From: Ardenticatenia bacterium
GTDB lineage: Bacteria; Chloroflexota; Anaerolineae; 4572-78; NAK82
Direction: 5' to 3'
DNA length: 64,000 nt
NCBI GenBank assembly: GCA_003130875.1
Contig: QEXY01000043.1
Span: 19,141-83,140 of the forward strand
Below are positions 10,215 through 57,647 of this stretch, in pieces. Positions within the stretch are counted from its first letter, which is position 1, and each line of letters starts with the position of its first letter. The position numbers and the translations under genes are program-made. Below the pieces are notes generated by a model. It saw nothing but the letters and a program-made list of their open reading frames with translations. It did no database searches and had not been told where the DNA came from.

Positions 10215-10304
10215 GAGAGTATTGAAAAACTCTTTAGTTACACGCTTTATTGGCCCATTTTCCTATGAAAATCTGAGCGGTCAAGGGACTTTTTCAACAC
10301 CCTC
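10215..10304 (+). repeat. ~90-nt hairpin repeat, copy 1
   Basis: GAGAGTATTGAAAAACTCTTTAGTTACACGC...GGTCAAGGGACTTTTTCAACACCCTC. Near-identical to copies at 21817, 41138 and 57557. Flanked by direct GTCAATC(G). Confidence 0.9.
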
Positions 10305-10516
10305 GTCAATCGGCGCAAGAAAGGGGCATTTCACCTTTGGGAAAGCTAGGTCAAACCAGGTCGCGTGTATGTAAACGTCGCGTATTCACCACCGCGCATG
10401 CGGAAAGAGATATGGAAAACTCTGCGGACCTCTGGACCCTCTGTAGTGAAAAAAACTTTCTATCAGCCGCCACTCCAATTCACCCCCAAATGGAAATATC
10501 CTCATTTCTCCATCAT

Positions 10517-11344
10517 TCATTTCACGCCGTTATTTTCCCGCTCCGATGTTTTCCGACGCAGAGTCACATCTCCGACGAGAATGGAGATCGTACGGCCATC
10601 GGGGAGGTGAAGGAGTAACGCTCCCGTTTCGTCTACCGATTCGGCAAATCCTGAGAAGGTACCCTCAGGTGCGACCACAGTGACCTCTTGGCCCAATGGT
10701 AACAAATGCGCCGCCCACTCAGACACAGGGCTATGTCCTGCACGCAATGCCTCGTAGCGTCTCTCCACATGTGAGAGCAAAGAGGTTAGCAAGGGCAAAC
10801 GGGCGACCGGACGACCTATTGCCTCGGAGAGGCTGATGGCAGTGCCACTCAGCTCGGGCAGCTGGCTGAAGTCTACATTGACGTTCAATCCCATACCCAC
10901 GATGACCCAGGCTATTTTGTTCTCCTGAGATATTTCGATCTCTGTGAGGATCCCGGCCAGCTTTTTGTCGCGGAGCAGCACGTCGTTGGGCCATTTGAGA
11001 TTGGGACGTAGGCCGGTCACTTCATATACAGCATCCGCTATCGCCAGCGCACAGACCATTGTCACCCACTGAGCACGGTTCGGCAGCAGAAAAGTGGGTC
11101 GGAAAAGGATGGAGAATAGAAGGCTGGACCGTGCCGGCGCGATCCATTTTCGGGCCATGCGGCCGCGACCGCACAACTGCTCGTCGGCAATAACAAGTGT
11201 CCCCTCTGTGGCTCCCTGTTCTGCCAGACGCTTGAGTTCATCCTGGGTTGAGCTGGTCGTCCTGTGAAAGACAGTCGGCCGTCCCACCCAACGTGTCATC
11301 AAGGCTGCGGTGATCACCTCTGCCGAGAGATCATATCCTGTCAT
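10517..11344 (-). CDS. birA: biotin--[acetyl-CoA-carboxylase] ligase (class I, no HTH)
   Basis: 'GRGRMARKWIAP' biotin-ligase motif. ATG at 11344 overlaps the upstream stop (ATGA). The longer ORF-track start at 11383 was rejected. Confidence 0.85.
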   Translation of the reverse strand: MTGYDLSAEVITAALMTRWVGRPTVFHRTTSSTQDELKRLAEQGATEGTLVIADEQLCGRGRMARKWIAPARSSLLFSILFRPTFLLPNRAQWVTMVCALAIADAVYEVTGLRPNLKWPNDVLLRDKKLAGILTEIEISQENKIAWVIVGMGLNVNVDFSQLPELSGTAISLSEAIGRPVARLPLLTSLLSHVERRYEALRAGHSPVSEWAAHLLPLGQEVTVVAPEGTFSGFAESVDETGALLLHLPDGRTISILVGDVTLRRKTSERENNGVK

Positions 11345-12258
11345 ATGGTTTCGCCTCTTCCTCCTGAAGCTTTCCACAACCACGAGCGCAGAATCGCCAG
11401 GGCGGCAACACCGTCCGGCGTTGTCACCCCCAATTGCTCCAGCAGCGCCTCATCTTCCTCTTTGAGCAACATCTCCCCCAGTCTCGAGTGTGCCAGGTCA
11501 CGCAGATCTTCCCACACGGCGTCCTGGACAGGATGATCATCCACTATTTTGCCATCCCGCATAGTTAAGATGCGTCGTGTGCGCCGTGCCACCCGAGGGT
11601 CGTGGGTCACCACCAAGATAGTGGTCCCCTGGGTTTGATTGATGTGTTCAAATAGGTCCATAATCTCGCTGCCGCTCTGGGTGTCGAGACTGCCGGTGGG
11701 CTCATCAGCCAGGATAATCGCAGGATCGTTGGCCAGAGCACGTGCAACCGCCACACGCTGACGTTGTCCGCCGGACAGTTGAGCAGGAATGTGGTTCATC
11801 CGGTCAGCCAGCCCCACCAGCTCCAGGAGATGTTCCGCTCGCCGACGCATTTGAGACTTGCTGATCCTCTGACCATGCATGGGAACCTCAACGTTCTCAC
11901 GCGCAGTGAGTGTGGGCAACAAGTTGTGCAGCTGGAAGACGAACCCGACAGTGCACGCGCGGAAACGGTCTACGTCCCGAATGGTGGTCAAGTCTTCGCC
12001 ATTCACGATGACGCGTCCGCTGGTAGGCCGGTCTAATGCACCGATGAGATTCAGGAGAGTGCTTTTGCCACTGCCCGAGGGCCCCATGACTGCGAGGAAC
12101 TCTCCCTTGTGAACGACCATATCCACGCCGTCCAAGGCGCGCACGACGACTCCATCGCCATAATAGCGCGTCAGCTGATAGGTGGCGACAACCACCGGCT
12201 GTTCGCAATCTTCTGTTTCGCGCTTTGCTTGCGATCCATTAGGCATCGTTTCATTCAT
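11341..12258 (-). CDS. ABC transporter ATP-binding protein (MacB/LolD type) with ~70-aa C-terminal extension
   Basis: Walker A 'GPSGSGKST', signature '[14 protein letters not shown]', Walker B 'ILADEPT'. ATG at 12258 overlaps the upstream permease stop by 8 nt. Confidence 0.85.
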
Positions 12259-14476
12259 ATCGTAATGCCTCCACCGGCTGTAGCTGTGCGGCGCGCCAGG
12301 CAGGGTACAGACCGCCCGCAAGACCCAGTAAGAGGGCAACCGCCAGCGACTGCCCAACGAGCTGAGGCGTGTAGACGGCGGTCAGGAACGCTCCAAAGTC
12401 GGGAGCTGATTGTAACGCTAGCGTGAGCCCCCAACCTGCCAGCAGACCCACCCCGCCGGCAAGCCCACTCAGCACCAGCGCTTCGCTCAGTACCATCCAG
12501 AGCACACGTGCTTTGCGCCAGCCAAGAGCGCGCAACGTGCCAATCTCACGCGTGCGCTCCATCACCGACATCACCATCGTGTTAGTTACCACAATCCCAC
12601 CCACTATTAGCGCCAATGCAAACACCGCGTTCATCATAGCTTTGGTGTTCTGGAAATCCGCCAAATTATTGCCAAATGTCGCGCTCAAGGATACGGACAC
12701 CTCACCGCCTAGCCGTGACTCAATCAGGTCACGCACAGTTTGCGCTTGGGATGGATTGTGCAACTTAATCTGATACAAGCTTACCTGATGACGTTTCTGA
12801 AATGCTCGTTGCGCCTCACGCAAGGCGATCACACCGGCAGCGTCTTCATAAGCGGTACCGGTCTCGAAGATGCCAACGACTCGGTAGACACCTCCTGGAA
12901 GGATGAGGGTATCCCCCACTTTTTTCTTCAAGTTCCGGGCCGCCGTGTGCCCGAGCATCACCTCGCGCCGGGCAACGATATGCCGTCCTTGTACAATGCG
13001 ATAGCGCGACAGCGATGGATCCGCTGGGTCAATACCCAGAATAAAAAGAAACGGCAGGTCTTCTCCGGTGCTGACCCCCCATAGGATGCCCGATACATAT
13101 GCTACCTCAGGCATCGCTGCGATCGCACGTCCCACGCGCTCGTCGACCACTGAGTAGCCCATATCGGCGACACCGGCCTGCACGACTACCAATTCTGCTC
13201 CACCCCGGCTCACAAAAGCATTCAGCTGCTGTATCGAACCTTCTGTTATGGCTCCCAGCGATAGGATCAGCGCGCTGCCGATTGTAATGCCGATCATGGT
13301 CAACAGACTGCGCGTGCGACGTCTCCAAACGGCGCGCAATGTCAGGCTCAGATGGAGCACCCAAGTGGGTTCTCTGCCTGTCTCCGCTCCCATTTCATAA
13401 CGCAACGCCTCGATGGGCCTCAAACTTGCTGCACGCCACGCCGGGTAAATCCCCCCGATGAAACCCAGGATCAGTGCCATCACAAGCCCTTGAAGGAGCA
13501 ACGCTGCTTTTAGAGAAGCTGGTGCTATACTTGCAATGGCGGGAGTCCGATTCACCCCCCATGTTAGTCCAAGCCCAATGCCTATGCCGAATAAGCCACC
13601 TAGCAGGCTCAAGGAGACAGACTGTCCCAGGATCAGTCCCAGAACACGACGACGGCGCCATCCTAGTGCCCTCAATACCCCGATTTCATGAGTCTGTTCG
13701 AACACAGCCATTATCATCGTGTTCATCATACCAAGCCCGCCGATGAGGATTGCGATCATGCTGATTCCCCACGCCATGCTGCGGATGGTCTCAACTGTCT
13801 GCTGCTCATCAGCCAGATCGCTGGCTTTTGTTACAGATACCTCGGGCGACAAATCCTCGATCAGTTGTTTTGCTTTGTCTGCCTCGGACGGGTTATATAA
13901 GCGCACCTCGAAAAAACTCACGCGGCGTGACTTCTTTAGAATGCGTTGCGCATCGCTCAAGGAGATCACGGCACCGCTATCCTCGAACAGCTGTCCGGTC
14001 TCATATATGCCAACCACAAAGAACGGTCTGCTGAACAGCCTTACCGTATCCCCAATATCCTTCTCTAGATTGGTGGCAGCCTGCCGCCCCAACAACATCT
14101 GCCCTGGACGCATAAGACGACCACCCTGGACAATGCGGAAATGCTGTATACTTGTGCCTTCTGGATCGTGACCGTTGATAAAGAAATAAGGCACCTTTTC
14201 AAGCGCCACCAATCCCACAACGACACCTGAGACGTTGCGTACTCCCGGCAGCTGGGCGATGCGCGACCCCAGCTCCTCTTCCAAGGCACTTAGGGTAATG
14301 TCGTAGACATTCGCCTGCATGACCAATAGATCGGTGTCACCTGCTATGCCGGCATAGCCTTGGGCGAGCCCCTCGGCCATGGCACCTAAAACCACAACCG
14401 CCGCTACCCCGATGGCGATTCCCAAGATGGTCAGGAAGCTGCGCACACGACGTCGCCAAAGACCGTGCCAGACCAT
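12251..14476 (-). CDS. MacB-like ABC permease, internally duplicated (two MacB_PCD + FtsX modules)
   Basis: 741 aa. Both halves begin with the same pattern ('WRRRVRSFLTILGIAIGVAAVV' and 'WRRRTRSLLTMIGITIGSALIL') and end 'PIEALRYE'/'PVEALRYE'. Confidence 0.85.
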   Translation of the reverse strand: MVWHGLWRRRVRSFLTILGIAIGVAAVVVLGAMAEGLAQGYAGIAGDTDLLVMQANVYDITLSALEEELGSRIAQLPGVRNVSGVVVGLVALEKVPYFFINGHDPEGTSIQHFRIVQGGRLMRPGQMLLGRQAATNLEKDIGDTVRLFSRPFFVVGIYETGQLFEDSGAVISLSDAQRILKKSRRVSFFEVRLYNPSEADKAKQLIEDLSPEVSVTKASDLADEQQTVETIRSMAWGISMIAILIGGLGMMNTMIMAVFEQTHEIGVLRALGWRRRRVLGLILGQSVSLSLLGGLFGIGIGLGLTWGVNRTPAIASIAPASLKAALLLQGLVMALILGFIGGIYPAWRAASLRPIEALRYEMGAETGREPTWVLHLSLTLRAVWRRRTRSLLTMIGITIGSALILSLGAITEGSIQQLNAFVSRGGAELVVVQAGVADMGYSVVDERVGRAIAAMPEVAYVSGILWGVSTGEDLPFLFILGIDPADPSLSRYRIVQGRHIVARREVMLGHTAARNLKKKVGDTLILPGGVYRVVGIFETGTAYEDAAGVIALREAQRAFQKRHQVSLYQIKLHNPSQAQTVRDLIESRLGGEVSVSLSATFGNNLADFQNTKAMMNAVFALALIVGGIVVTNTMVMSVMERTREIGTLRALGWRKARVLWMVLSEALVLSGLAGGVGLLAGWGLTLALQSAPDFGAFLTAVYTPQLVGQSLAVALLLGLAGGLYPAWRAAQLQPVEALRYE

Positions 14477-14587
14477 TCTTTCCCTCTTTTAACGGAAGTA
14501 GTGTCCCTGGTGCCTTCATTATATATCTGTGCAGAGAGGCGCGCGATCATCTTCGGTCTCTTGACCCTCACTTCAGGATGGCTTGCT

Positions 14588-14616: not shown

Positions 14617-14623
14617 GTGAACG

Positions 14624-19463: not shown

Positions 19464-20690
19464 ATGCGTATTGGTCTGATATCGCCCTATGATTTTGCCT
19501 ATCCCGGCGGTGTTACCAAGCACATTACCAATCTAAGCGGTAAGCTGCAAGAGTTGGGACACCGAACACTTATCATAGCGCCTCTGTCCCATAATGGTGT
19601 AGTACCCCCTCCAGAGCTGATCCCACTATCGTGCGCCATTGTCCCAGTGCGTTATAATGGCTCACAAGCACGATTATGCCTATCACCGTTTATGAGGCAA
19701 GCTGTGCGTCGCATCTTGAGGCAGTATCCATTTGACGTAATCCATTTGCATGAACCAGCCAACCCGACTTTGCCCCGAGTGGTGTTGCAGGAGGTTGCCA
19801 AGTTAGCACCTGAAACCGTGATAGTGGGCACATTTCACGCATACCGCGAGAGTTATAGACTGAGTGATCTGGAGCAACTGTTGCATTATGCATATCGCAC
19901 CTTCTCTCGCAATCTCGCTGTCCGGCTTGATGGTCGCATTGCGGTGTCTTCGCTGGCTCAGGAACATGCCTCTCGTGTGTTCCCCGGTTCGTATCGGGTG
20001 ATTCCCAACGGTGTGGATGTCAATCTCTTCGGTGACACCCGAATTGTTCCCCTGCCCGAGTTCCGGGACGGGCTCAATATCCTTTTCGTGGGACGACTTG
20101 AGGCGCGTAAAGGGGTGCACTATTTGCTTGAAGCCTTTGCACGAGTTAAAAATGTACTGCCACAAACGCGCTTGCTAGTTGTCGGACCTCACTCCGCACG
20201 CGGAATACGCTCATTACAAAGCCTCCTTCGTTCATGGGGTTTGCGCGATGTCCATTTTCTTGGATACTTATCGGAGAAAGACCTTGCCCGCTGTTACCGT
20301 ACGGCCCAAGTGCTCTGTGCTCCTTCGCTTGGTTCTGAGAGCTTTGGTGTGGTGCTTCTGGAAGCAATGGCAGCTGGACTTCCCATTGTTGCGTCCGACA
20401 TTGCGGGTTACCGCGCCATCGTAAGACATCAGGAGGAAGGCTATTTGGTGCCCCCAGGCGATGGAGAAGCAATCGCCGATGCCCTGATAACTCTATTACG
20501 TCAACCCGAATTGCGCCGTTCTATAGCCGCCCGAGGACGCATCACAGCCGCGCGCTACGCTTGGGACCGGATTGCAGCTGATGTTTTGAGCTTCTATACG
20601 GCTCTATACGCGGAAAAGCGTGCTCAGCATCACAAGTTTTATCAGGCATCTCTACTTGGCATATCGCAGAGGATCGAACAGGTGAACTGA
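19464..20690 (+). CDS. GT4-family glycosyltransferase (PimA-like mannosyltransferase)
   Basis: 408 aa. 'VGRLEARKG' and 'ESFGVVLLEAMAAGLPIVASDIAGY' (EX7E). Confidence 0.8.
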   Translation: MRIGLISPYDFAYPGGVTKHITNLSGKLQELGHRTLIIAPLSHNGVVPPPELIPLSCAIVPVRYNGSQARLCLSPFMRQAVRRILRQYPFDVIHLHEPANPTLPRVVLQEVAKLAPETVIVGTFHAYRESYRLSDLEQLLHYAYRTFSRNLAVRLDGRIAVSSLAQEHASRVFPGSYRVIPNGVDVNLFGDTRIVPLPEFRDGLNILFVGRLEARKGVHYLLEAFARVKNVLPQTRLLVVGPHSARGIRSLQSLLRSWGLRDVHFLGYLSEKDLARCYRTAQVLCAPSLGSESFGVVLLEAMAAGLPIVASDIAGYRAIVRHQEEGYLVPPGDGEAIADALITLLRQPELRRSIAARGRITAARYAWDRIAADVLSFYTALYAEKRAQHHKFYQASLLGISQRIEQVN

Positions 20691-20693
20691 TCG

Positions 20694-21287
20694 ATGTTGA
20701 CCGATCTTGTGCGCGAGTGGACTCGTGGGTTCGTGTTACCCATCGCACGGTTCATCGGTTGGAGTGGGATATCACCTAACGCTATCACGCTCGCAGGCTT
20801 CTCGTTGACAGTGGCGGTTGCAGTATTACTGGCAATGGGACATGTGCAACTAGCTGGTGTCCTACTTATCCCCGCAGCCGGTTTAGATGCCATCGATGGC
20901 TCTCTGGCGAGGCTCCAAAACCGGGTGACACGTTTCGGCGCCTTCCTCGACTCAACTATAGATCGCCTCTCAGAGGCGGCACTGTTTTTGGGTGCCTTGC
21001 TCTATTACTTGGGTGGCTCGCCCACAAACGTGGAAATCATCGTTCTATTTGTAGCACTGATAGGCTCGCTGATGGTCAGCTACACCAAAGCTCGCGGCGA
21101 AGCAGTCGGGGTTGCCATCAAGGGAGGGCTGCTGACACGTTTTGAGCGTATGTTAGTGCTGATAATTGGCATGGCGCTCAACGAGTTGACTGCTGCATTG
21201 TGGATATTGGCCGTTCTCGCTCATGTAACGATGCTGCAGCGGATATGGATTACCTGGCGCAACACCCGCGATCTTAAGAACGGATAA
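20694..21287 (+). CDS. CDP-alcohol phosphatidyltransferase (phosphatidylinositol-phosphate synthase-like)
   Basis: Motif 'DGSLARLQNRVTRFGAFLDSTIDRLSE' equals DGxxARx8GxxxDxxxD. 197 aa with ~6 TM segments. Confidence 0.85.
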   Translation: MLTDLVREWTRGFVLPIARFIGWSGISPNAITLAGFSLTVAVAVLLAMGHVQLAGVLLIPAAGLDAIDGSLARLQNRVTRFGAFLDSTIDRLSEAALFLGALLYYLGGSPTNVEIIVLFVALIGSLMVSYTKARGEAVGVAIKGGLLTRFERMLVLIIGMALNELTAALWILAVLAHVTMLQRIWITWRNTRDLKNG

Positions 21288-21291
21288 CGCT

Positions 21292-21660
21292 ATGAGTTAC
21301 TTGGGAAATGCTATCTGGCTGATCTTTGGCGGTTTGCTGGCCGCCTTCGTCTACATCACCGGAGGTGCGATTATTTGTCTGACGGTAGTGGGAATTCCCT
21401 TCGGTCTCCAGTGTATTAAACTGGGTGTTGCCATGCTGGCGCCTTTTGGCAAAGAACTGCACCGGTCACCCCAAGCGAGTGACACACTATACGTCATTAT
21501 GAATCTCATTTGGTTTATTTTATTTGGCTGGCAGATTGCCTTGCTTCATCTGACATTGGCACTTGTCCTTGCCCTGACGCTTATTGGCTTGCCGTTTGCC
21601 AAGCAGCATATTAAGCTCATCCCTCTGGCCCTGTTCCCATTCGGGCACGATCTGGTCTAA
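21292..21660 (+). CDS. YccF-domain inner membrane protein
   Basis: 122 aa. Duplicated 'IWLIFGG...GIPFG' / 'IWFILFGW...GLPFA' pattern. Confidence 0.7.
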   Translation: MSYLGNAIWLIFGGLLAAFVYITGGAIICLTVVGIPFGLQCIKLGVAMLAPFGKELHRSPQASDTLYVIMNLIWFILFGWQIALLHLTLALVLALTLIGLPFAKQHIKLIPLALFPFGHDLV

Positions 21661-21816
21661 GTGTCACTTTCGTGTTCCAAGCACGTTTCATCGCTGAGCA
21701 CGCAGAGAGCGCAAAGCATAACAAGGGCGGGGAAAGATTTTGTATCCCCTGCGGTGGAAAAACCTTCTGCATGCGGTCGTTCCAATGCCCTAAGTCGAAA
21801 TACACCCCCTAAAAAT

Positions 21817-21906
21817 GAGGGTGTTGAAAAAGTCCCTTGACCACTCAGATTTTCATAGGAAAATGGGCCAATAAAGCGGGTAACTAAAGAGTTTTTCAAC
21901 TCTCTC
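21817..21906 (-). repeat. ~90-nt hairpin repeat, copy 2 (inverted relative to copies 1, 3, 4)
   Basis: GAGGGTGTTGAAAAAGTCCCTTGACCACTCAG...AAAGAGTTTTTCAACTCTCTC, the reverse complement of the family consensus. Confidence 0.9.
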
Positions 21907-21913
21907 AGATTAA

Positions 21914-21942
21914 TTGACAGCGCAATGCGGGTGACATATAAT
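21914..21942 (+). promoter_or_regulatory. consensus sigma70 promoter TTGACA-17-TATAAT for tRNA-Val
   Basis: Both hexamers are perfect with a 17-nt spacer. The -10 ends 15 nt before the tRNA 5' end. Confidence 0.65.
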
Positions 21943-21957
21943 GAAGACATCCTGAAC

Positions 21958-22031
<74 letters not shown>

Positions 22032-22047
22032 CCTACCTCTTGAGCCC

Positions 22048-22344
22048 ATGCACATCGAGGATACAGGATTGCATTCCATGCCCGGATTACCCCCCATCCC
22101 CGACGTCGATACCTTCAATCTGGGGCGCTTGCTGCTCAATATGGCCCTGGCCGTCGTCTGGACCGCGGTGGCTGGGGTGTGCTTCGCCCTCGCGCTCGCG
22201 CTGGGATTGCGTCTGCTTGCCACGTTGCTGCCGGAGATGGACTACCTGAGCGAGCTGAAGCGTGGTAACATAGCAGTGGCACTCGTGGTGAGCGTCGTGA
22301 TGGTCAGTCTAACGGCGGTCGTGGTAGCCATCCTGCTCAAGTAG
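22048..22344 (+). CDS. DUF350-type small membrane protein
   Basis: 'ELKRGNIAVALVV' motif with 2-3 TM segments. The ORF-track start at 21925 reads through the tRNA, so the start was moved to ATG 22048. Confidence 0.55.
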   Translation: MHIEDTGLHSMPGLPPIPDVDTFNLGRLLLNMALAVVWTAVAGVCFALALALGLRLLATLLPEMDYLSELKRGNIAVALVVSVVMVSLTAVVVAILLK

Positions 22345-23839
22345 TCGAGGGTACTTCCCCTTCGTGCGTGGCCTCCGGCTCGACGTGGATCACGATGCGC
22401 CCCAGCTCGGGCAGCTGACGACGCAGCGCCTGCTCCACCTGTTCCGCGATGATGTGTGCGTCCACCATCGGGGTCTCAGCTCCCACGCTGCAATGTAGGG
22501 TGACGATCATCTCCCCCTCACTATGATGCACATGGACATCGTGCGGCTGGCAGCGCACCTGATCCTGTTTTTGACATGCTTCAAGCGCCCGCAACACGCG
22601 GGCGATGTCTTCAGCGCTGGCCTGGAACACTTTCGCCGCAGCATACTCGTTCACCGGCTCGATGTGCGTCACCACGTGGCCCACCTCTGGCCGCGCGCGC
22701 TGCAACGCTGCTTCGAAATCGCTGACCAGGTTATGAGCTTTCTCGACGGAAAGGTGGTCAGGCACTTCCAGATGCAGCTCCACACCCACTCGTGGCGCGC
22801 CAGCCTCCTGAGTCGTCAGCGCGTATTGGCGGATGCTATGCGCGCCCACACCGTGTTGGGCTGCCAGCAACCGCACGCTGGTGATCAGGTCTTCTTCAGC
22901 CGAGCGCACTGGCTCGACATGCACCACGACGTCGCTATGCGGCAAGATACTGCGTACCGCCTCTTCTGCGGCAGTGGCGATGGCATGTGCCGCTTCGAGG
23001 TTAGCTTCGCGCCCGATCTGCACTGTCACATCGGCGAACGTCTCTGGACCGCTGCGGCGCAGGCGCATCCGCTCGACGCGCAGGACACCCGGCACGCCGC
23101 TCACCACTTCCATAACCTGATCGTACAGGCCGCGTGGGATGCCATCGATCAAGCTTTCCACAGCACGCCGCGCTAGCTGCCAGCTGACGAGGATGACAAT
23201 CCCGGCGACCCCAATAGCGGCCACGGCATCGGCATGCTGCAACCACGGAAGCCCCAGCCGTTCAGCGGCCCACACCAGCGCCAATCCCAGGATGACCACT
23301 ATGGAGGAATAGACATCGGTGGAAAAGTGCAGCGCATCCGCCTCCAGCGCCTGGCTGTGATATCTGCGCGCCGCCTGCGCCAATGCGCGCGAGCGCGAGA
23401 TGTCCACGACGATCGAGACACCCATCACCGCGAATGCCCACCAGCTGAGCTCGATCTCGTGGTGTCCGAAGAGCAGACGCTGCACCGCCTCATAGATGAT
23501 CCAGGCACACGTCCCTAGTAGGAGTAATGTCTCGAACAGGGCAGAAAGGTTTTCCACCTTGCCATGCCCGTAGGTGTGTTCGCGGTCCGCCGGGCGGTCC
23601 GAGACGCGCACTGCTAAAAACGTGATGCCGGCGGCGATCAGATCGAGCGCAGAATGGGTAGCTTCCGCTAAAATGCCCAGGCTGCCAGTCATGAATCCCA
23701 CCACCAGCTTCATCAAGGTAAGGAAGACGGCGGCCGCAACCGAGCTGAGCGCCACCAACCGTTTTTCACGACTTGCATGCGCGCTCTGGCTCACGGAGCT
23801 GCTTGAGAACTCTGCCATTGCCGTATAACGCGTCACCAC
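22337..23839 (-). CDS. cation diffusion facilitator (CDF) transporter with three tandem cytoplasmic ZT_dimer-like domains
   Basis: 500 aa. TM domain has 'HSALDLIAA' and 'HTYGHGKVE'. Three successive ~85-aa modules follow, each ending 'HVEP/HIEP'. Confidence 0.85.
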   Translation of the reverse strand: MVTRYTAMAEFSSSSVSQSAHASREKRLVALSSVAAAVFLTLMKLVVGFMTGSLGILAEATHSALDLIAAGITFLAVRVSDRPADREHTYGHGKVENLSALFETLLLLGTCAWIIYEAVQRLLFGHHEIELSWWAFAVMGVSIVVDISRSRALAQAARRYHSQALEADALHFSTDVYSSIVVILGLALVWAAERLGLPWLQHADAVAAIGVAGIVILVSWQLARRAVESLIDGIPRGLYDQVMEVVSGVPGVLRVERMRLRRSGPETFADVTVQIGREANLEAAHAIATAAEEAVRSILPHSDVVVHVEPVRSAEEDLITSVRLLAAQHGVGAHSIRQYALTTQEAGAPRVGVELHLEVPDHLSVEKAHNLVSDFEAALQRARPEVGHVVTHIEPVNEYAAAKVFQASAEDIARVLRALEACQKQDQVRCQPHDVHVHHSEGEMIVTLHCSVGAETPMVDAHIIAEQVEQALRRQLPELGRIVIHVEPEATHEGEVPSTT

Positions 23840-23951
23840 GACAATCCTCTATCTTACGCATTAGTGTCCCCCAATCATATCACAGGCGACTGCAACAAGA
23901 TAATTTCAGTTGCTCGAAAATATCTATGTATAGAACCTAAAAAATCGAGAA

Positions 23952-23980
23952 TTGCTCTCAAACCCGTTCTGTGGTATGAT
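23952..23980 (+). promoter_or_regulatory. promoter TTGCTC-17-TATGAT (with upstream TG)
   Basis: Read directly. Lies ~125 nt upstream of ATG 24108. Confidence 0.4.
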
Positions 23981-24107
23981 ACGCTCAGCAACGTAGCAGA
24001 GCGAAGTGATCTGCGTAGGCGAAATGTGGAGGGTTTCTCACTATTGCTCTGATGCCAGATCATGCGGTTCCGGCGGCATCGGGATGGGATGAGAGGAGGT
24101 GCCAACT

Positions 24108-24833
24108 ATGCGGGATGTGGAGGAGCTCATCCAGCGAAGCAAACCGTTTCTGAGTTACCTGCTGCGGTGGCGACAGAACTTGCAGCCAGTGGCACTCAGC
24201 GCGTTAGTGCAGGACAGCCAGAGTCCCGATCAGGTGGCGCTTATGGCGGTGGATGTGATCAATGGCTTCTGTCACACGGGGCCTCTGGCGAGTTTGCGCG
24301 TGGCGGGCATTGTGGCGCCCATCGTGCTCCTGTTTCAGAACGCCTATGCCTTGGGCGTGCGCCATTTTATCTTTCTGCACGATGCCCATGACCCTCAGGC
24401 GGTCGAGTTCGACAGCTATCCAGCGCACTGTGTGCGCGGCAGTGAAGAGAGCGCGCCGGTGCCTGAGTTGAAGGCACTCCCTTTCTTCGATAAAGTGGTT
24501 ACGATGATACCCAAAAACTCGGTGAACGCGGCAGTGGGCACCGCGCTGAACGACTGGCTGGATGCGCATCCTGAGGTGCGCACGTTCATTGTGGTAGGCG
24601 ATTGTACCGACATTTGTGTTTACATGCTTGCCATGCACTTGCGCACGCGTGCCAACGCGGCCAATCGCACGGTACGGGTGATCGTGCCGGCCAACGCGGT
24701 AGACACCTATGACTTGCCGGTAGAGGCAGCGTCGCAGACAGGAGCACTTCCCCATGACGGGGAGCTGTTGCATCTCATATTCTTGTATCACATGCGTTTG
24801 AACGGCATTGAGGTGGTGGCAGCCATCGAATAG
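24108..24833 (+). CDS. isochorismatase-family cysteine hydrolase (nicotinamidase-like)
   Basis: 'ALMAVDVINGF', 'IPKNS' and 'IVVGDCTDICV' give the Asp/Lys/Cys triad pattern. ATG 24108 lies 8 nt after GAGAGGAGG. Confidence 0.8.
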   Translation: MRDVEELIQRSKPFLSYLLRWRQNLQPVALSALVQDSQSPDQVALMAVDVINGFCHTGPLASLRVAGIVAPIVLLFQNAYALGVRHFIFLHDAHDPQAVEFDSYPAHCVRGSEESAPVPELKALPFFDKVVTMIPKNSVNAAVGTALNDWLDAHPEVRTFIVVGDCTDICVYMLAMHLRTRANAANRTVRVIVPANAVDTYDLPVEAASQTGALPHDGELLHLIFLYHMRLNGIEVVAAIE

Positions 24834-24933: not shown

Positions 24934-26826
24934 TCACCAACGTGGCACGAAGCGAAGCGCATCAAAGGCGATCATACGGGTGCCGTAGAGTTCACGCGTG
25001 TTGTCGTACACCACCACAAACTCATTACCCATGGCAGCGAAGTAATACGTCCCCAAGCTTACCCATTGATCGTTGTACTGCCACTGGTTGATGATGCGGT
25101 CGTGGCGCTGGCCGGCGTGGATGATGCGATAGCGCACGCGCGTGCTGGTGGCAAACTCGCGCGGGATAAAGGCGAACACCTCGTAGTAACCGGGTGCCGC
25201 GAGACGCGGCACCCATTTGCCGAAGTTGACCGGATTGGTATAGCTGTTAAAGGTCCAATAGAGACTTCCACCGATTCCCAAATAGGCGATACGACGTGAG
25301 CCCAGCGGTCCTCCCCAGATGAAACCAGGGTCTGTGTTGTCCACCATGACCTCCACGCCGACGGGCGGTGGGTAGGGCGGGTAATAGGGTGGGTAGTAGG
25401 GGGGCACCGGAGTAGGCACCGGGGTAGGGAACACCGGGGGTGGTGCACCACCTGCGGTCCACCATACAGAGATCAGTGCGAACTGAGAACGCTCATAGTA
25501 GTCCACTTGCACGCGATGGGTGCCAATGTTAAGCGCTTTGACTCCGCAATGCACCGCCGCCGCCTGCTCGAACCACGAGTCGATCACCAGCGCGCCATCC
25601 ACGTACAGCCGCACGCCGTCGTCATGGCGGGCGCAGAAGGTGTAGGTACCATTGTCAAACCACACCTCGCGCGTCCATCGGATGGAGAAATCGTCTGCCG
25701 GCATGCCGGGAGCGGGTGGCCCCCAGCCCCAATCGAAATTGATTTCTGCATCGACGCGTGTCAGCACGGGAGGGCCGCCCAAGAAGGTATTATTGAAGTA
25801 CTCACCGTACCAGCCGGTCGCGGGCGGTGGCACCGGTGTCGGATATGGCCAGGGCCATGGAGGTGCTGGTGTAGGTGCCGGCGGAGGGGGAGGGGGCGGT
25901 GCCGGCGGCAGGGCACTGCCGGAGCTATAGGAGAAGACGATGATCGCATCGCCGCGTTTCTGCAGATAGGCCACCTGAACAGTGTGTCGCCCGGCTGTGA
26001 TATAGCGCGATGCGCAGAACGTGCGCACGCTCTGCTCGCGCCACTCATCCAGGATAAGCACGCCGTCCACCCACACGCGCACACCATCATCCACAGTGGC
26101 GCAGAAATTGTAGGTGCCCGCAGCGAAATTGATGTCGCGTGTCCAGCGCACCGAGTACTCGTAAGCAGGCAACCCAACGGCTGGCGAGTTGGTGCCCCAG
26201 TTGAAGTTGATCTGAGGATCCATGCGCACCATCACGGGCGGCTTGGCCGGCGAGACGCTGGCACCCAGCATCATGTCATCGTAGTACTCGCCGACCCAGG
26301 CCTCTGCCGGTGAGGGTGGCCACGGCACCGGCGGCCCGGGCGATGGCACCGGCGGCAGCGGGCCGCTCCACACCAGGCGGGCCATAGCATTGCCGGTGTC
26401 CTCGAAATAGGCCATCTGCAAGGTGTGGTTGCCTGCGGTCAGATAGGGGCTTGCGCAGTAGGTCACCGACGCACCGGTCACCCGCCACTGGTCGATAAGC
26501 AGCTGGCCATCCACCCAGAATCGCACCCCATCGTCCACTGTGGCACAGAAATTGTAAGTGCCAGCATTGAAGCTCATCGTGCGTGTCCAGCGCACGGAGA
26601 ACTGATCGATGGGCACTGCTGCACTGGGCGAACCTGTGCCCCACACGTAGTCAATGCTGGGCTCATAGCGGGTGAGGACAGGTGGCCCTGCCAGGCTGTG
26701 ATTGGCGAAATACTCGGCAAACCAGCCCGGGTCCTGAGCAGGTGGAGAGGCCATCACCGCTGCCGGCAACGTGTTCGCCAACAGTGCCAGAAGTACCACA
26801 AGCCATGTGAGTATGCGTTTCATCAT
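24934..26826 (-). CDS. secreted protein with three PA14 domains, Pro-rich linkers and a C-terminal golvesin-C-like beta-sandwich domain
   Basis: Signal peptide. Three ~125-aa repeats ('F.EY...P...R.D..I.F.WG...P......FSVRWTR...F.AGTY.FCA..DDGVR.WVDG') separated by PPxP linkers. Confidence 0.8.
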   Translation of the reverse strand: MMKRILTWLVVLLALLANTLPAAVMASPPAQDPGWFAEYFANHSLAGPPVLTRYEPSIDYVWGTGSPSAAVPIDQFSVRWTRTMSFNAGTYNFCATVDDGVRFWVDGQLLIDQWRVTGASVTYCASPYLTAGNHTLQMAYFEDTGNAMARLVWSGPLPPVPSPGPPVPWPPSPAEAWVGEYYDDMMLGASVSPAKPPVMVRMDPQINFNWGTNSPAVGLPAYEYSVRWTRDINFAAGTYNFCATVDDGVRVWVDGVLILDEWREQSVRTFCASRYITAGRHTVQVAYLQKRGDAIIVFSYSSGSALPPAPPPPPPPAPTPAPPWPWPYPTPVPPPATGWYGEYFNNTFLGGPPVLTRVDAEINFDWGWGPPAPGMPADDFSIRWTREVWFDNGTYTFCARHDDGVRLYVDGALVIDSWFEQAAAVHCGVKALNIGTHRVQVDYYERSQFALISVWWTAGGAPPPVFPTPVPTPVPPYYPPYYPPYPPPVGVEVMVDNTDPGFIWGGPLGSRRIAYLGIGGSLYWTFNSYTNPVNFGKWVPRLAAPGYYEVFAFIPREFATSTRVRYRIIHAGQRHDRIINQWQYNDQWVSLGTYYFAAMGNEFVVVYDNTRELYGTRMIAFDALRFVPRW

Positions 26827-39642: not shown

Positions 39643-40953
39643 CTACTGTGCCCACTTGGTGAAGTTCTCCAGCGCTTCGGGATTCTGTGAGGCCCACTTG
39701 TCGATGACATCCTGGGTCATCTGGGCAAGCTCTTCGGGTGTCTTCTCGCCGGCGAAGAGCAGCTGTGTGCCGGCAAAGTTGGCCTGCTCGTCCATCATGC
39801 TAGGTATGAAGTTCTCCAGGTTGGGCCCTGGGATCGTGGTCGCCCATTCATAAATCTGCTTGAGCTGGGGTTGCTCGATCAGTGACACATCCAGCCGGTC
39901 ATCCGCTGGCAGGACACCAGTGTACTGGAACCAAGCATTCAACCGATCCTGAGTGTGCATGAACATCAAGAAATCCGCCGCCTCCTGCTTATGTTTTGAC
40001 CAGGAGGTGATCCCCAGTCCTTGGGCAGTGACAATATACTGACTGGCCATCTTGCCGTCGGCGTACTTCGGCACCAGCATTACCCCGATGTTGTCCCAGC
40101 TGCCCATTGTGTCGGCCCAACCCTTCAGGAAGGTGTCATTGCCGAAGATCATGGCGGCCTGGCCCTGCACAAAGCGGTCCATCCCCTGCTGGTAGTCGAG
40201 TGAGTTGATGTCCTCGTTCCAGCAGCCGGCATCGCGCAGCTCGGCCAACCGTTTCCACCACTCGACGTGCTTAGGGTCGGTGAACTTGGTCTTGCCGATC
40301 ACCGCTGCCATTATGTCCTTCTCGCTGTCGTGAGGCTGACGTCCCAGAATGGAATAGAGCCAGCCACCGAACCAGCCATCCTTGAGCCCGCCGGAAATGG
40401 GGATGACGTTGATCGCTCTGAGTTTGCCACAAGCATCGATCAACGCATCCCAGGTCTCCAAGGGTTTCTTGGGATCGAGACCAGCTTTCTCGAAGAGGGA
40501 GGGGTTGTAGACGAACGGGTTACCGGAGAGATACCACGGCACGCCCCAGATCTTGCCATCGAAGGTGCGCTCGAAGTTATTGATATAATGGGCGAGCTCA
40601 TCAGCGGGGATGAGGTCGTCAATGGGTGCTACTCCACCACCCCAGGCAAATTCGAGCGTCCAAACACCACCCCAAAAGTATTGGATATCTGGGCCTTCCT
40701 GAGCAGCCATTGCCGACTGGAAGGAGGGGATCAAACTGTCGGTCGATTGCAAGACTTCCTCGATGGTGACATTGGGGTGCTTTTCCTGATAGAGCTGGAT
40801 GGTTTCATCGAGCCACTTCTGAGCACCGGGGGCTTCTTGCTCACCCCACCACCACATCACCAGCTTGACCGGCTCAGCTGCCTGGACCGTCAAGGGGGAT
40901 GTTGTCAACATACACAGTGTTACGACGAGCAGGGCATACAGGAAACGCTTCAT
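39643..40953 (-). CDS. CUT1-type ABC sugar-binding protein
   Basis: ATG 40953 is preceded by AAAGGAGGAAAAGG. Signal peptide 'MKRFLYALLVVTLCMLTTSPLTVQA'. Confidence 0.85.
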   Translation of the reverse strand: MKRFLYALLVVTLCMLTTSPLTVQAAEPVKLVMWWWGEQEAPGAQKWLDETIQLYQEKHPNVTIEEVLQSTDSLIPSFQSAMAAQEGPDIQYFWGGVWTLEFAWGGGVAPIDDLIPADELAHYINNFERTFDGKIWGVPWYLSGNPFVYNPSLFEKAGLDPKKPLETWDALIDACGKLRAINVIPISGGLKDGWFGGWLYSILGRQPHDSEKDIMAAVIGKTKFTDPKHVEWWKRLAELRDAGCWNEDINSLDYQQGMDRFVQGQAAMIFGNDTFLKGWADTMGSWDNIGVMLVPKYADGKMASQYIVTAQGLGITSWSKHKQEAADFLMFMHTQDRLNAWFQYTGVLPADDRLDVSLIEQPQLKQIYEWATTIPGPNLENFIPSMMDEQANFAGTQLLFAGEKTPEELAQMTQDVIDKWASQNPEALENFTKWAQ

Positions 40954-41094
40954 TGTCCTTTTCCTCCTTTGGTTTAAAATTAAGGACCTGTCTCTGTACC
41001 TCACAATGAAATTGGTTATCGCAGGAACCACAAAACAACAAACTCGCCGGCGACAACGTGGGATGATTGGGGAAGCCGGCTACTACTTTTACAG

Positions 41095-41124
41095 CATCTT
41101 AGCACCCTTACAGGACAAAGTCAA
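41095..41124 (-). promoter_or_regulatory. promoter TTGACT-18-TAAGAT
   Basis: Read on the minus strand. Lies 13 nt from repeat copy 3 and ~140 nt upstream of the SBP start. Confidence 0.4.
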
Positions 41125-41137: not shown

Positions 41138-41226
41138 GAGGGTGTTGAAAAACTCTTTAGTTACCCGCTTTATTGGCCCATTTTCCTATGAAAATCTGAG
41201 CGGTCAAGGGATTTTTCAACACCCTC
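41138..41226 (+). repeat. ~90-nt hairpin repeat, copy 3
   Basis: GAGGGTGTTGAAAAACTCTTTAGTTACCCGCTTTATTGGCCCATTTTCCTATGAAAATCTGAGCGGTCAAGGGATTTTTCAACACCCTC, with perfect 15-nt terminal inverted repeats. Confidence 0.9.
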
Positions 41227-51844: not shown

Positions 51845-51868
51845 CGGATATGACTCCTGAATGAGAAA

Positions 51869-53700: not shown

Positions 53701-53718
53701 ACCCGGGGAGGGAGAGGG
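53693..53718. repeat. purine/pyrimidine-arm hairpin CCCTCTCC-10 nt-GGAGAGGG
   Basis: Read directly. Same style as the hairpins at 35733 and 44346. Confidence 0.5.
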
Positions 53719-53809
53719 AGTCCTGCCTGCTCACGTGCGCGCTTTGGTTGGAGTCATCCCTCTTGTCGATGTCCCGAAAAACCCACCCCTTAAAAGGATC
53801 GAGTTCTCC

Positions 53810-54778: not shown

Positions 54779-55611
54779 CGCAACAACTCCTCTCGCGCGC
54801 GAGCCGCTTGCTCCGGGGTGAGCGCGCGGCCGTGGAATGTATAGTCCGCCTCAACGAACGAAACGCCCTTGCCCTTAACCGTGTGGGCGATGATCACCGA
54901 AGGTTGCCCCTGCACCTGTTGCACCGCTTGCAACACCTCGATCAACGCCGCGATATCGTGTCCGTCCACCTCTTCGACGTGCCAGCCGAAACCCCGCCAC
55001 TTCTCGATGAAGGGTTCCAGTGCCATCTCACGGCTGATGGGACCGGTCTCCTGGTACTTGTTATAATCCACAATGGCGTGTAGGTTGTCCGCCTTGAAGT
55101 GGGCAGCGGCCATGGCCGCCTCCCAAACCTGGCCCGCCTGGCATTCGCCATCGCCCAATAACACGTACACCCGATAGGTGAGACCGTTAAGACGTCCCCC
55201 CAGCACGTGGCCCAAGCCGAGCGAAAGCCCCTGGCCCAACGAGCCGGTGGTCGCCTCGACGCCGGGCAACAGACCCTGGATCGGATGTCCCTGAACGGGA
55301 CTGTCCACCTGGCGCAATGTCCAGAGCAAATCGCGGCTGAAATAGCCGGCCGCTGCCAACACGGCGTACAGGGCTGGCGCGGCGTGCCCCTTACTCATGA
55401 TGAAACGATCGCGTTCAGGCCACCAGGGATCATCCGGATGGTAGCGCAGGATGCCCCCGAAGTAGAGCGCAGTCAGAATCTCCACACATGACCAACTGCT
55501 GGATGGATGGCCCGAGGCCGCTTTGGTGGTCATGTCCAGGATATCTAGTCGAAAGCTGCGCGCTAATTCTTTGAGCGCATTGATGTCCACCGATTGATCT
55601 GTCACCGTCAT
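54775..55611 (-). CDS. transketolase, N-terminal (ThDP-binding) subunit
   Basis: 278 aa. 'GHPSSS', 'GSLGQGLS' and 'GDGECQAGQVWEA' motifs. Overlaps the C-subunit gene by 4 nt. Confidence 0.9.
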   Translation of the reverse strand: MTVTDQSVDINALKELARSFRLDILDMTTKAASGHPSSSWSCVEILTALYFGGILRYHPDDPWWPERDRFIMSKGHAAPALYAVLAAAGYFSRDLLWTLRQVDSPVQGHPIQGLLPGVEATTGSLGQGLSLGLGHVLGGRLNGLTYRVYVLLGDGECQAGQVWEAAMAAAHFKADNLHAIVDYNKYQETGPISREMALEPFIEKWRGFGWHVEEVDGHDIAALIEVLQAVQQVQGQPSVIIAHTVKGKGVSFVEADYTFHGRALTPEQAARAREELLR

Positions 55612-55680
55612 ATGGAATGCCTTGCTCCTTTTCTGTCGTGAATAAACGCCAAGTCTCCTCTGTGCTTGCAGCGAGACCGG

Positions 55681-56640
55681 CTATGCCACCTGGCTGAGAA
55701 ACTCCTTCACCTGTGCCGCAGTGGGCAAGGCGGGGATGACACCCACCTTCGTGGCGGTCAAGGCACCCACCGCGTTGGCGTAGCGCAAGATGGAGCGCAA
55801 ACGTTCCGGAGTCAGCTGCGCACGCCAATCTCCGACAGCGATGAGCTGCCACAGCAGACCGGCGATAAAGGCATCACCACATCCGGTCGCATCCACCGCC
55901 TCCACCCGGAAGGGGGGCACGTGCTCACCACCTTCAGAGGTTGCAAAGTAGCTGCCCAATGGCCCCAGAGTAACCACGACCAGCTGGGGACCCAGTTCGA
56001 GCAAGCGTTGGCTGGCGGCGCTTTCCTGGCTGCCCGTCAAAAGCTCCAGCTCGATCTCGTTCACCTTCACCAGGTCCACATGGGGGATCATCGATTTGAC
56101 TTGATCCAGCGCCTGTTGGGGGCTTTCCCACAGCGAGGGGCGATAATTGACATCAAAGGAGATCAGTGCACCTCCCTGGCGTGCCAGCTTGAGTGCCTCC
56201 CAAGTGGCACTGCGAATGGGTTCTGCGCCCAGACTAAGTGAGCCGAAATGGAGCACCCGCGTTCCCTGCAACAACTCGCGATCCAGCTCATCCGGGCGCA
56301 GGCGTGTGTCGGCGCCGGGATTACGGTAAAAGACGAACTCCTGTGTGTTAGCATCCGGCTTAGCAATAAAGGCCAGCGTGGTACGCGCTTCGCGGTCGAA
56401 GCGGATGCCACGCGTATCCACACCGTTAGCGCGCATCACCTCAACCAGGTGGTGGCCAAATGCGTCATCCCCCACCTTGCCGATAAAGGCGCTGCGCGCT
56501 CCCAGACGGGCAGCAGCCACAGCCGCGTTCGCTGGCGCACCCCCTGGTTTGGGCAGAAATGCCGAGACTTCCGCCAATCGGCGGCCGTACTCGGCAGGAA
56601 ACATGTCCACCAACAGCTCACCCAGGCATACGATGTCCAT
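55681..56640 (-). CDS. PfkB-family ketose/sugar kinase (fructokinase-like)
   Basis: 319 aa. 'GGAPANAA' and 'DATGCGDAFIAG' signatures. Confidence 0.85.
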   Translation of the reverse strand: MDIVCLGELLVDMFPAEYGRRLAEVSAFLPKPGGAPANAAVAAARLGARSAFIGKVGDDAFGHHLVEVMRANGVDTRGIRFDREARTTLAFIAKPDANTQEFVFYRNPGADTRLRPDELDRELLQGTRVLHFGSLSLGAEPIRSATWEALKLARQGGALISFDVNYRPSLWESPQQALDQVKSMIPHVDLVKVNEIELELLTGSQESAASQRLLELGPQLVVVTLGPLGSYFATSEGGEHVPPFRVEAVDATGCGDAFIAGLLWQLIAVGDWRAQLTPERLRSILRYANAVGALTATKVGVIPALPTAAQVKEFLSQVA

Positions 56641-56722
56641 TGCAACGCTTCTCCTTGCTTATAGAGATAATATGACCCTGTCTGTCCCGGTTTATCCGGC
56701 AGCTCAAGCGGTGCCGGATGGA

Positions 56723-57490
56723 TCAACCTTGCAGTTCAGCATAGAGCACATAACGGTCGCCACGGTGATAGTAACGCAGATACTCCACCGGCACGTCGCC
56801 CTGGGTGTAGGAAACGCGTTCCACGTATAGGAGAGGGGCGCGCGCCGGCACTTTTAGCAGGTGTGCGATGGCGTTCGGCGCCGCGATAGCACGGATGGTC
56901 TGTCGGGCACGCACCAGGCGGATGCCGTACTCGCGTTCCAGTGTCTCGCGCAGAGGTTGGGCAGCATAATCATAGCGCAGTACACCCGGGCAATAACGGT
57001 GCACTAGGTGAGATTCTTCGATGCTCATCGGCTCGTCGTCGGCCAGGCGCAGCCGTTTCAGCAGGGCTAACTCCTCCCCAGGGGATATGTGCAGGTGTGT
57101 CGCGATGTCGAGTGGTGCGCTGATGAGCTCGGCTGAGAGCACCTGAGTGCCCGGCCGCAGGCCGCGGCGGCGCATATCCTCGGTGAAGCTAATGATGCGT
57201 GTCAACCCCTGCTCCACAGTCGGATGTGCCACGAAGGAGCCGCGACCACGCTGGCGGAAGATAAGCCCTTCCTTGACCAACAGGTCCAGCACCTGACGCA
57301 CAGTGGTGCGACTTACATGGTATTGCTGCACCAATTCTGATTCAGGTGGGATCATCTCACCAGGTTGCCAAGCACCGCTGAGGATGCGCTCGCGCAGGAT
57401 CTCATAGAGCTGATGGTACAACGGTAGCTTGCTGTTGCGGTCAATGAGCAGTCCAGACAGGCTAGCAGGAGCAGAAGGCATATTCATCAT
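56723..57490 (-). CDS. GntR-family transcriptional regulator (HutC subfamily, UTRA domain)
   Basis: 'LPPESELVQQYHVSRTTVRQVLDLLVKEGLI' wHTH plus a UTRA effector domain. Confidence 0.85.
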   Translation of the reverse strand: MMNMPSAPASLSGLLIDRNSKLPLYHQLYEILRERILSGAWQPGEMIPPESELVQQYHVSRTTVRQVLDLLVKEGLIFRQRGRGSFVAHPTVEQGLTRIISFTEDMRRRGLRPGTQVLSAELISAPLDIATHLHISPGEELALLKRLRLADDEPMSIEESHLVHRYCPGVLRYDYAAQPLRETLEREYGIRLVRARQTIRAIAAPNAIAHLLKVPARAPLLYVERVSYTQGDVPVEYLRYYHRGDRYVLYAELQG

Positions 57491-57513
57491 TCCGATTGAC
57501 CAAATGTAACAAC

Positions 57514-57542
57514 ATTATAACATATACGCGCCCAAAAGTCAA
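57514..57542 (-). promoter_or_regulatory. promoter TTGACT-17-TATAAT for the GntR-kinase-transketolase unit; overlapping imperfect palindrome TGTTATAATGTTGTTACA (57505-57522)
   Basis: Read on the minus strand. The -35 lies 14 nt from repeat copy 4. The GT...AC palindrome is compatible with a GntR-type operator. Confidence 0.55.
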
Positions 57543-57556
57543 GCTCGTGGGCACTC

Positions 57557-57647
57557 GAGGGTGTTGAAAAAAGTCTTTAGTTACCCGCTTTATTGACCCA
57601 TTTTCCTATGAAAATCTGAGCGGTCAAGGGACTTTTTCAACACCCTC
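57557..57647 (+). repeat. ~90-nt hairpin repeat, copy 4
   Basis: GAGGGTGTTGAAAAAAGTCTTTAGTTACCCGCTTTATTGACCC...GGGACTTTTTCAACACCCTC. Confidence 0.9.

Follow-up and report, generated by a model that had tools for sequence, protein, structure and literature searches.

A miniature transposon of Anaerolineae with the ends of an IS5-family insertion sequence, found in one orientation beside promoter-like sites

[quoted passage not shown] Correia (CREE/NEMIS) elements have 26-bp terminal inverted repeats (TIRs), duplicate a TA target, and contain an integration host factor (IHF) site. Repetitive extragenic palindromic (REP) sequences and REPINs are a second class of short intergenic palindromic hairpin repeats; REPINs lack target site duplications (TSDs) and are mobilized by Y1 (IS200/IS605-like) REP-associated tyrosine transposases (RAYTs). 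IS5-related MITEs are known in Porphyromonas gingivalis (PMC4596501), and IS5 itself inserts in Escherichia coli upstream of the promoters of glpFK, bglGFB, flhDC, and fucAO at sites of SIDD (stress-induced DNA duplex destabilization) (PMC5493358, PMC11894529). Here we describe a repeat of about 90 bases present in four copies in a 64,000-nucleotide stretch of an Ardenticatenia bacterium (GenBank assembly GCA_003130875.1, contig QEXY01000043.1, positions 19,141 to 83,140 of the forward strand), referred to below as the window. The repeat is a MITE, a nonautonomous transposon. Like the prokaryotic MITEs named above it is small and noncoding, with TIRs, TSDs, many near-identical intergenic copies, and the ends of an autonomous IS, and it shares with them a long hairpin and the spurious open reading frames (ORFs) that it creates. 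It differs from them as a new sequence family in a new host lineage (Anaerolineae) and in a strong orientation- and position-specific bias toward DNA just upstream of −35 boxes. Most likely, it is the MITE of a 1.36-kb Anaerolineae IS5-family IS and integrates nonrandomly, with the end carrying its left inverted repeat (IRL) upstream of −35 hexamers.

The four copies in the window share 96 to 99% identity and were found at the positions and in the orientations given by the first-pass annotation of this DNA. Their right inverted repeat is termed IRR. The copies, the duplications flanking copy 1, and the adjacent promoter-like sites with the genes that these serve are as follows.

MITE copy 1: 10215 to 10304, + strand; 90 nt, with the IRL-like repeat at 10215 to 10229 (GAGAGTATTGAAAAA) and the IRR-like repeat at 10290 to 10304
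Left TSD of copy 1: 10208 to 10214; GTCAATC, 7 bp, overlapping the −35 box
Right TSD of copy 1: 10305 to 10311; GTCAATC, 7 bp
Promoter-like site at copy 1: 10184 to 10212, − strand; TTGACA-17-TATCAT, 11/12, TG-extended, directed outward at 2 bp from the IRL end
Gene served by the copy 1 site: 8358 to 9911, − strand; ABC ATPase
Second TTGACA near copy 1: 10197 to 10202; 12 bp off the element
MITE copy 2: 21817 to 21906, − strand; 90 nt, inverted, with the IRL-like repeat at 21892 to 21906 and the IRR-like repeat at 21817 to 21831
Promoter-like site at copy 2: 21914 to 21942, + strand; TTGACA-17-TATAAT, 12/12, 7 bp from the IRL end
Gene served by the copy 2 site: 21958 to 22033; tRNA-Val
MITE copy 3: 41138 to 41226, + strand; 89 nt, without the C preceding the right repeat
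Promoter-like site at copy 3: 41096 to 41124, − strand; TTGACT-17-TAAGAT, 9/12, TG-extended, 13 bp from the IRL end
Gene served by the copy 3 site: 39643 to 41031, − strand; solute-binding protein
MITE copy 4: 57557 to 57647, + strand; 91 nt, with an additional A in the left A-run
Promoter-like site at copy 4: 57514 to 57542, − strand; TTGACT-17-TATAAT, 11/12, TG-extended, 14 bp from the IRL end
Gene served by the copy 4 site: 56723 to 57490, − strand; GntR/UTRA regulator

A 42-nt core pattern with at most one mismatch matched exactly four sites in the window and none in 100 shuffles, and the 15-nt terminal repeat with at most two mismatches occurred eight times, always at an element end (0.05 expected). 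A repeat search of the window revealed no fifth copy and no related repeat family. All four copies were placed between genes by ORF, Pfam, and tRNA mapping, in agreement with the earlier claim that they are intergenic: copy 1 is flanked by a biotin-ligase-like gene and the ABC ATPase gene, copy 2 by yccF and tRNA-Val, and copy 3 by a GFO/IDH/MocA oxidoreductase gene and the solute-binding-protein gene, whereas copy 4 is located upstream of the GntR/UTRA regulator gene.

In total, 14 MITE copies were aligned: the 4 from the window, 8 from loci L011 to L017 of JGI sample 3300038964, and 1 each from loci L002 and L001. They range from 89 to 96 bp, are 92 to 99% identical to their consensus, and lie in contexts unrelated to each other. 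The 15-bp TIRs (GAGGGTGTTGAAAAA / TTTTTCAACACCCTC) are perfect in window copies 3 and 4. Perfect direct duplications of 6 to 8 bp flank 7 of the 14 copies; the duplication is 7 bp long at four of these, 8 bp at two, and 6 bp at one.

Window copy 1: GTCAATC
L013b: AAAAAAC
L016: GGTCGGC
L014: AAACTAC
L017: TCCATCCT
L002: CTTTACCA
L015: CACGAT

As the chance of a 7-bp match is ∼6e−5 per copy, these duplications are footprints of transposition. The identification as a MITE follows from the TIRs, the TSDs, the repeated occurrence of near-identical copies, and an IS5-family partner that is autonomous and has the same ends. The first-pass annotation had left open a MITE, a REP-like element, or a structured RNA; the TIRs, the TSDs, and the DDE partner support the first, the TSDs and a transposase of the DDE rather than the Y1 type speak against the second, and a lack of covariation speaks against the third. 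Searches of the full-text literature, the coverage of which was incomplete, identified no description of this element.

Other identities were considered and rejected. The TIRs of 15 bp and the 7-bp TSD of varied sequence do not match a Correia element. An integron attC site was set aside given the 11 to 20 kb between copies and the ordinary chromosomal genes that flank them; the TIR does not fit the attC core-site consensus, which was also counted against this identity. The REP/REPIN-RAYT system was rejected on the presence of TSDs and of a DDE partner, no search aimed at RAYT genes having been made. Finally, the promoters could have been part of the mobile unit (a "mobile promoter"), but the TSDs directly abut the 90-bp element and the promoter spacers have no common sequence.

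The copies outside the window came from two kinds of search. An exact-pattern scan of one genome per GTDB species identified two real copies, both in Anaerolineae metagenome-assembled genomes (MAGs), together with one chance match in Staphylococcus. One copy is on contig DAOTVI010000030 (L001:7734-7823) and the other on contig JBMFPH010000158 of GCA_049969215.1 (L002). The latter includes the sole sizeable indel among the 14 copies, a 6-nt internal duplication of CGCTTT at L002:4813-4818. Exact-pattern scans of the JGI metagenomes yielded only a duplicate of L001 and six chance matches, and those of IMG/VR viral contigs yielded no MITE copy. From these results, the window's own genome is absent from the scanned collections. 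In the second approach, the single open frame of the six in the element, which encodes a 29-amino-acid peptide without its own start codon, was doubled and used as the query for a protein search. It retrieved 12 annotated "hypothetical proteins" (P0001 to P0012), all from JGI metagenome 3300038964 and all read through MITE copies, and the contigs of seven of these are loci L011 to L017, which gave the eight new copies. The 12 entries, of 42 to 97 amino acids, are annotation artifacts, and P0009 has even been named a phosphopantothenoylcysteine synthetase/decarboxylase; the earlier remark that the element creates spurious ORFs is borne out in public annotations.

An eighth peptide match, P0002, sits on the contig of L018, which was found through the window's YccF protein. 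L018 is from the same sample and is 99.96% identical to window positions 19904 to 24660, indicating that the window's strain was present in sample 3300038964; the other contigs of this sample probably come from the same population as the window. A 1,966-nt Logan contig from SRR12784215 (L019) is 99.85% identical to positions 19904 to 21861 and terminates inside copy 2, an example of the repeat breaking a short-read assembly.

An autonomous partner, which the first-pass annotation had suggested looking for, was identified as an IS5-family IS with identical 15-bp ends. In L001, a second TIR pair bounds an IS of 1,363 bp (6365 to 7727) located 6 bp from the MITE, the transposase gene of which has two in-frame stops. 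A search with this transposase identified 770 relatives; among the 120 listed, almost all were ∼370 amino acids long with PF05598 and PF01609, and nearly all also had PF13751. ISs of 1,358 to 1,370 bp with the 15-bp TIRs of the MITE (L020 to L024, which are intact, and L001:6365-7727) carry one ORF of 370 amino acids with the domains PF05598 (DUF772), PF01609 (DDE_Tnp_1), and PF13751. Three representatives scored 149 to 166 bits against NCBIfam model NF033581 (transpos_IS5_4, IS5 family; cutoff, 140) and 194 to 218 bits against the IS1182 model, under its cutoff of 270 bits. The cutoffs of the other IS5 models of NCBIfam were not reached by these representatives, which were above cutoff for NF033581 only, and by that cutoff the predicted partner enzyme is an IS5-family DDE transposase. 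One full-length IS (L020) is in the same MAG (GCA_049969215.1) as the MITE copy of L002. The MITE and this IS have 19 nt in common at the IRL and 18 nt at the IRR, and the 53-nt interior of the MITE is unrelated.

The IS at L021 is flanked by a 7-bp TSD (GATTCTA), and for the MITE and IS family as a whole the TSD is mostly 7 bp. Typical TSDs of described IS5 subgroups are 2 to 4, 8, or 9 bp, and a TSD of 7 bp would match none of these. In tblastn searches of PLSDB plasmids with the transposase, no relative was found at 1e−30, and a transposase-profile scan of IMG/VR identified one distant relative only (27% identity).

Two further arrangements were seen among relatives of the parent IS. In L031 (IRR-ATGTTTT-IRL) and L037 (IRR-TATTAT-IRL), the ends abut with 6 to 7 bp between them, the length of a TSD; such an arrangement represents either two copies in tandem or the circle junction of an intermediate in transposition. 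In L025, L027, and L028 (about 1411 to 2669), the right end of a P0095-type IS is truncated, and an unrelated second transposase gene (PF13808 DDE_Tnp_1_assoc and PF01609) follows it directly, the IS insertion being either a nested or an adjacent one.

In the window, the IRL-like end of all four copies adjoins an outward-directed match to the σ70-type promoter, at distances of 2, 7, 13, and 14 bp. Only four matches of at least 11/12 to TTGACA-N17-TATAAT are present in the 64 kb, counting both strands, and three of these adjoin MITE copies. The first-pass annotation had mentioned promoters only in passing and had missed the adjacency of a promoter to the same end of every window copy. Across the 14 copies, 9 have an outward promoter of at least 9/12 within 18 bp of the IRL end (range, 2 to 18 bp), and 2 more have a −35 hexamer of at least 5/6 at 12 to 13 bp. 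No copy of the 14 has a promoter at the IRR end. A random intergenic position has such a promoter beside a given end with a probability of ∼0.02, giving a binomial P value of ∼7e−13 for 9 of 14. Outside the window, the promoters at MITE copies serve the following.

L011: a 16S-23S-5S operon
L013a: rplU-rpmA
L015: a TPP (thiamine pyrophosphate) riboswitch
L017: the gene for a phosphoglucomutase
L013b: a ferritin-like gene
L014: a gene for a tRNA, its promoter lying 89 bp from the element

Judged by their sequence and placement, the adjacent matches are real host promoters, being positioned correctly for the rRNA operon, tRNA-Val, rplU-rpmA, and the TPP riboswitch. The same geometry was identified on the IRL side of full-length ISs.

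L020, full-length IS: promoter at 11 bp, 12/12
L021, full-length IS: promoter at 12 bp, 10/12
L022, full-length IS: promoter at 12 bp, 11/12
L026, lineage with a transposase 54% identical to the query: 10 bp
L031, lineage with a transposase 54% identical to the query: 11 bp, 11/12
L033, lineage with a transposase 54% identical to the query: 11 bp
L036, third IS lineage: 12 bp

Among the pooled sites, 12 of 29 IRL ends had a −35-like hexamer at a distance of 10 to 14 bp (control rate, 0.03; P ∼ 1e−11), as did 2 of 22 IRR ends. A pseudo-inverted repeat beyond the −35 hexamer was also sought in the flanks; those of L011 and L002 look IRR-like and those of other copies do not, and this idea, judged by eye and speculative, was dropped. 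Searches of the full-text literature, again with incomplete coverage, found no bacterial IS that targets the −35 box and no described bacterial DDE IS whose insertions lie upstream of it with nearly constant spacing and in a single orientation.

The nearest precedent in behavior is E. coli IS5. It shares with the partner IS an IS5-family transposase with DUF772 and DDE_Tnp_1, insertion upstream of promoters, and orientation-dependent consequences. E. coli IS5 uses a 4-bp YTAR target, and its insertions lie tens to more than 100 bp upstream, at few loci, and were recovered under selection. In contrast, the TSD here is 7 bp, the −35 box lies ∼11 to 13 bp away, and the pattern is genome-wide without known selection.

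These observations suggest that the IS5 subfamily targets promoter-upstream DNA in a fixed orientation, with the bias arising from target choice and not from selection. The MITE would have retained ∼19 bp of the IRL and ∼18 bp of the IRR of the 1.36-kb IS around a 53-bp interior unrelated to it. The 370-amino-acid DDE transposase presumably binds the 15-bp TIRs and could then move the MITE in trans, and integration by a staggered cut would produce the 7-bp duplication and place the IRL end ∼11 to 13 bp (range, 2 to 18 bp) upstream of a −35 hexamer, the promoter being directed outward. A more specific proposal, that the subfamily's transposase and its dependent MITE actively recognize σ70-type promoters and integrate in a fixed orientation at roughly one turn of the helix upstream, has in our estimate slightly less than an even chance of being correct. 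Two routes to such recognition can be imagined, both speculative. The transposase might read the −35 TTGACA as a pseudo-end, resembling the TTGAAA in the TIR; the TTGAAA box is 7 nt from the tip, and a −35 box 11 to 14 bp from the IRL would lie 4 to 7 bp outside the 7-bp staggered cut. Alternatively, it might be tethered to promoter-bound RNA polymerase through sigma region 4 or the C-terminal domain of the alpha subunit (alpha-CTD). Once in place, the element could affect the adjacent promoter via its internal 9/12 promoter-like site, displaced upstream DNA, or a hairpin in read-through RNA.

Several points weigh against promoter-directed transposition. The promoters are σ70-type consensus matches (TTGACA-N17-TATAAT) and not mapped transcription starts. 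The −35 box is not at a constant distance, the spacing varying from 2 to 18 bp; one copy lies at 89 bp, and two are without a promoter. The IS at L023 has its promoter at the IRR end instead (11 bp), and the third IS lineage (P0099 type) shows the pattern in only one or two of four sites. No empty-site alleles were among the sequences recovered. No recognizable TSD was found at 7 of the 14 copies (window copies 2 to 4, L013:3931-4020, L011:10078-10167, L012:83-172, and L001:7734-7823), despite the 96 to 99% identity of the element bodies. Most of the full-length ISs are also without a TSD; these are on short-read contigs in which repeat flanks are perhaps chimeric. No transposase of the family was found in the window, where tblastn with the partner transposase returned no relative and the first-pass annotation had likewise noted none, or among the remaining contigs of this metagenome, and a partner in this particular genome is therefore putative. 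Finally, the eight copies from L011 to L017 came via spurious ORF calls, which could bias their context, although the four window copies, which are free of this bias, are all promoter adjacent. Exchange of flanks by recombination between copies was considered as a cause of the missing TSDs and rejected, since no cross-matching flanks were identified among the 14 copies.

Random insertion followed by selection could in principle give the same picture. Only landings in front of a −35 box might be tolerated, or such landings might be favored because the element boosts or insulates the promoter, with its A/T-rich end acting as an UP-like element, its internal TTGACC-16-GAAAAT as a tandem promoter, or its hairpin as a block to read-through. 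Intergenic space is indeed small, at ∼10% of the window, and much of it is functional. Every window copy has the internal 9/12 promoter-like site TTGACC-16-GAAAAT in the direction of the flanking promoter, and copies 1 to 3 and L013a have on their IRR side a codirectional gene that ends 100 to 210 nt away, such that a hairpin could insulate the promoter. However, tolerance alone is insufficient, because the free intergenic stretch before insertion was ∼160 to 215 nt at copies 1 to 3, yet each lies 2 to 14 bp from a −35 box, and because copies 96 to 99% identical are young and have left little time for neutral insertions elsewhere to be purged. A benefit specific to the MITE is likewise insufficient, given that the same geometry is found in full-length ISs of other organisms with related transposases (54 to 73% identity), to which such a benefit is inapplicable. 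An UP or activator function that depends on helical phase cannot be reconciled with a spacing of 2 to 18 bp, the promoters concerned are heterogeneous in function, promoter matches at the 9/12 level arise readily by chance (the window has 37), and no terminator-like site overlapping any of the four window copies was found. Selection as the source of the pattern is accordingly considered unlikely.

The element could also encode or constitute a structured RNA, either a small RNA initiated at the internal promoter or a hairpin that governs the processing or stability of read-through transcripts. The three-part hairpin described in the first-pass annotation was reproduced as the predicted minimum free energy fold of the consensus, with −33.1 kcal/mol as RNA (z = −4.7), −33.3 kcal/mol for the opposite strand, and −18.6 kcal/mol as DNA. 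This stability, the internal promoter-like site, and the precedents of Correia elements and REP sequences acting on RNA would be in keeping with an RNA function. The accompanying statement that differences between copies mostly preserve the fold was not borne out, as no compensatory change was identified in 14 copies and no pair had changed on both sides. Pairing over these copies was 96.2%, compared with a shuffled mean of 96.6%, and thus not above the control, in a comparison of limited power given the low divergence. An A·C mismatch is present at TIR position 4 in 6 of the 14 copies. The divergence previously reported for the promoter-proximal end of copies 1 and 2 is mostly this G/A polymorphism at position 4; each of these two copies has one further private substitution in that repeat. 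Because the polymorphism is seen again in 6 of the 14 copies and also distinguishes the parent-IS IRL (GAGAGTG), it is inherited and not a sign of decay. Moreover, the two strands fold equally well, the window copies are without terminators, no Rfam family covered the elements of the window at the gathering threshold, and at E ≤ 1 a search with copy 1 and its flanks gave no match to the element, the only hit being a meaningless one to sR24 (E = 0.12) in the flank. The inverted ends account for the long hairpin as a by-product, without a selected RNA fold, and a structured RNA is highly improbable. Equally hard to credit is a primary role as a cis-regulatory or structural DNA element of the host, be it a palindrome bound by a protein or a RAYT-serviced REP/REPIN-like element, in place of a transposon derivative: the palindrome is long and near perfect, its location exclusively intergenic, and its orientation relative to promoters constant, but TSDs are present, identical ends occur on a DDE IS, the distance to the promoter is not constant, and neither the absence of TSDs nor the pairing with Y1 transposases that marks REPINs was seen here.

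With transposition into promoter-upstream DNA as the preferred explanation, the element and its partner form a new MITE/IS5-family lineage of a known kind, and it is the promoter-proximal target preference that is apparently new. As a repeat family, it is an ordinary, previously unnamed MITE in a poorly studied phylum, and its recognition clears spurious "hypothetical proteins" from annotations and accounts for assembly breaks. If the bias is mechanistic, the system would be a tractable one in which to study the reading of promoter DNA or RNA polymerase by a transposase, a natural tool to mark or perturb promoters, and an example of mobile DNA coexisting with compact genomes by being parked harmlessly beside essential genes. 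The Ty1 and Ty3 retrotransposons of yeast show integration targeted by RNA polymerase III (Pol III) (PMC5911963), and promoter targeting by the present element, if true, would be a bacterial counterpart to this. The analogy is one of outcome only, namely, a narrow window upstream of the promoters or starts of highly transcribed genes, including tRNA genes, that serves as a "safe haven." Ty1 and Ty3 are eukaryotic long terminal repeat retrotransposons tethered by Pol III or TFIIIB, whereas the element here is a bacterial DDE cut-and-paste element. Its haven would lie beside rRNA, tRNA, and ribosomal-protein promoters, the upstream regions of which would have been swapped wholesale for transposon DNA in these bacteria, with many promoters rewired at once.

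Additional features were noted in the window. Between the copy 1 promoter-like site and the start of the ABC ATPase gene lies an untranslated leader of ∼270 nt (9912 to 10183); no Rfam family matched it at E ≤ 1, and it could be an unrecognized cis-regulatory leader. Three 121-nt repeats (25571 to 26603; spacing, 444 to 468 nt; 61 to 76% identity) lie inside an ORF of 630 amino acids (24934 to 26826, − strand) and probably reflect repeated protein domains. Three tandem 114-nt repeats (58769 to 59104; 67 to 70% identity) were identified inside the ORF at 58320 to 60197 (− strand), which has an N-terminal zf-HC2 anti-sigma-type zinc finger, and these would equal 38-amino-acid repeats in the protein.

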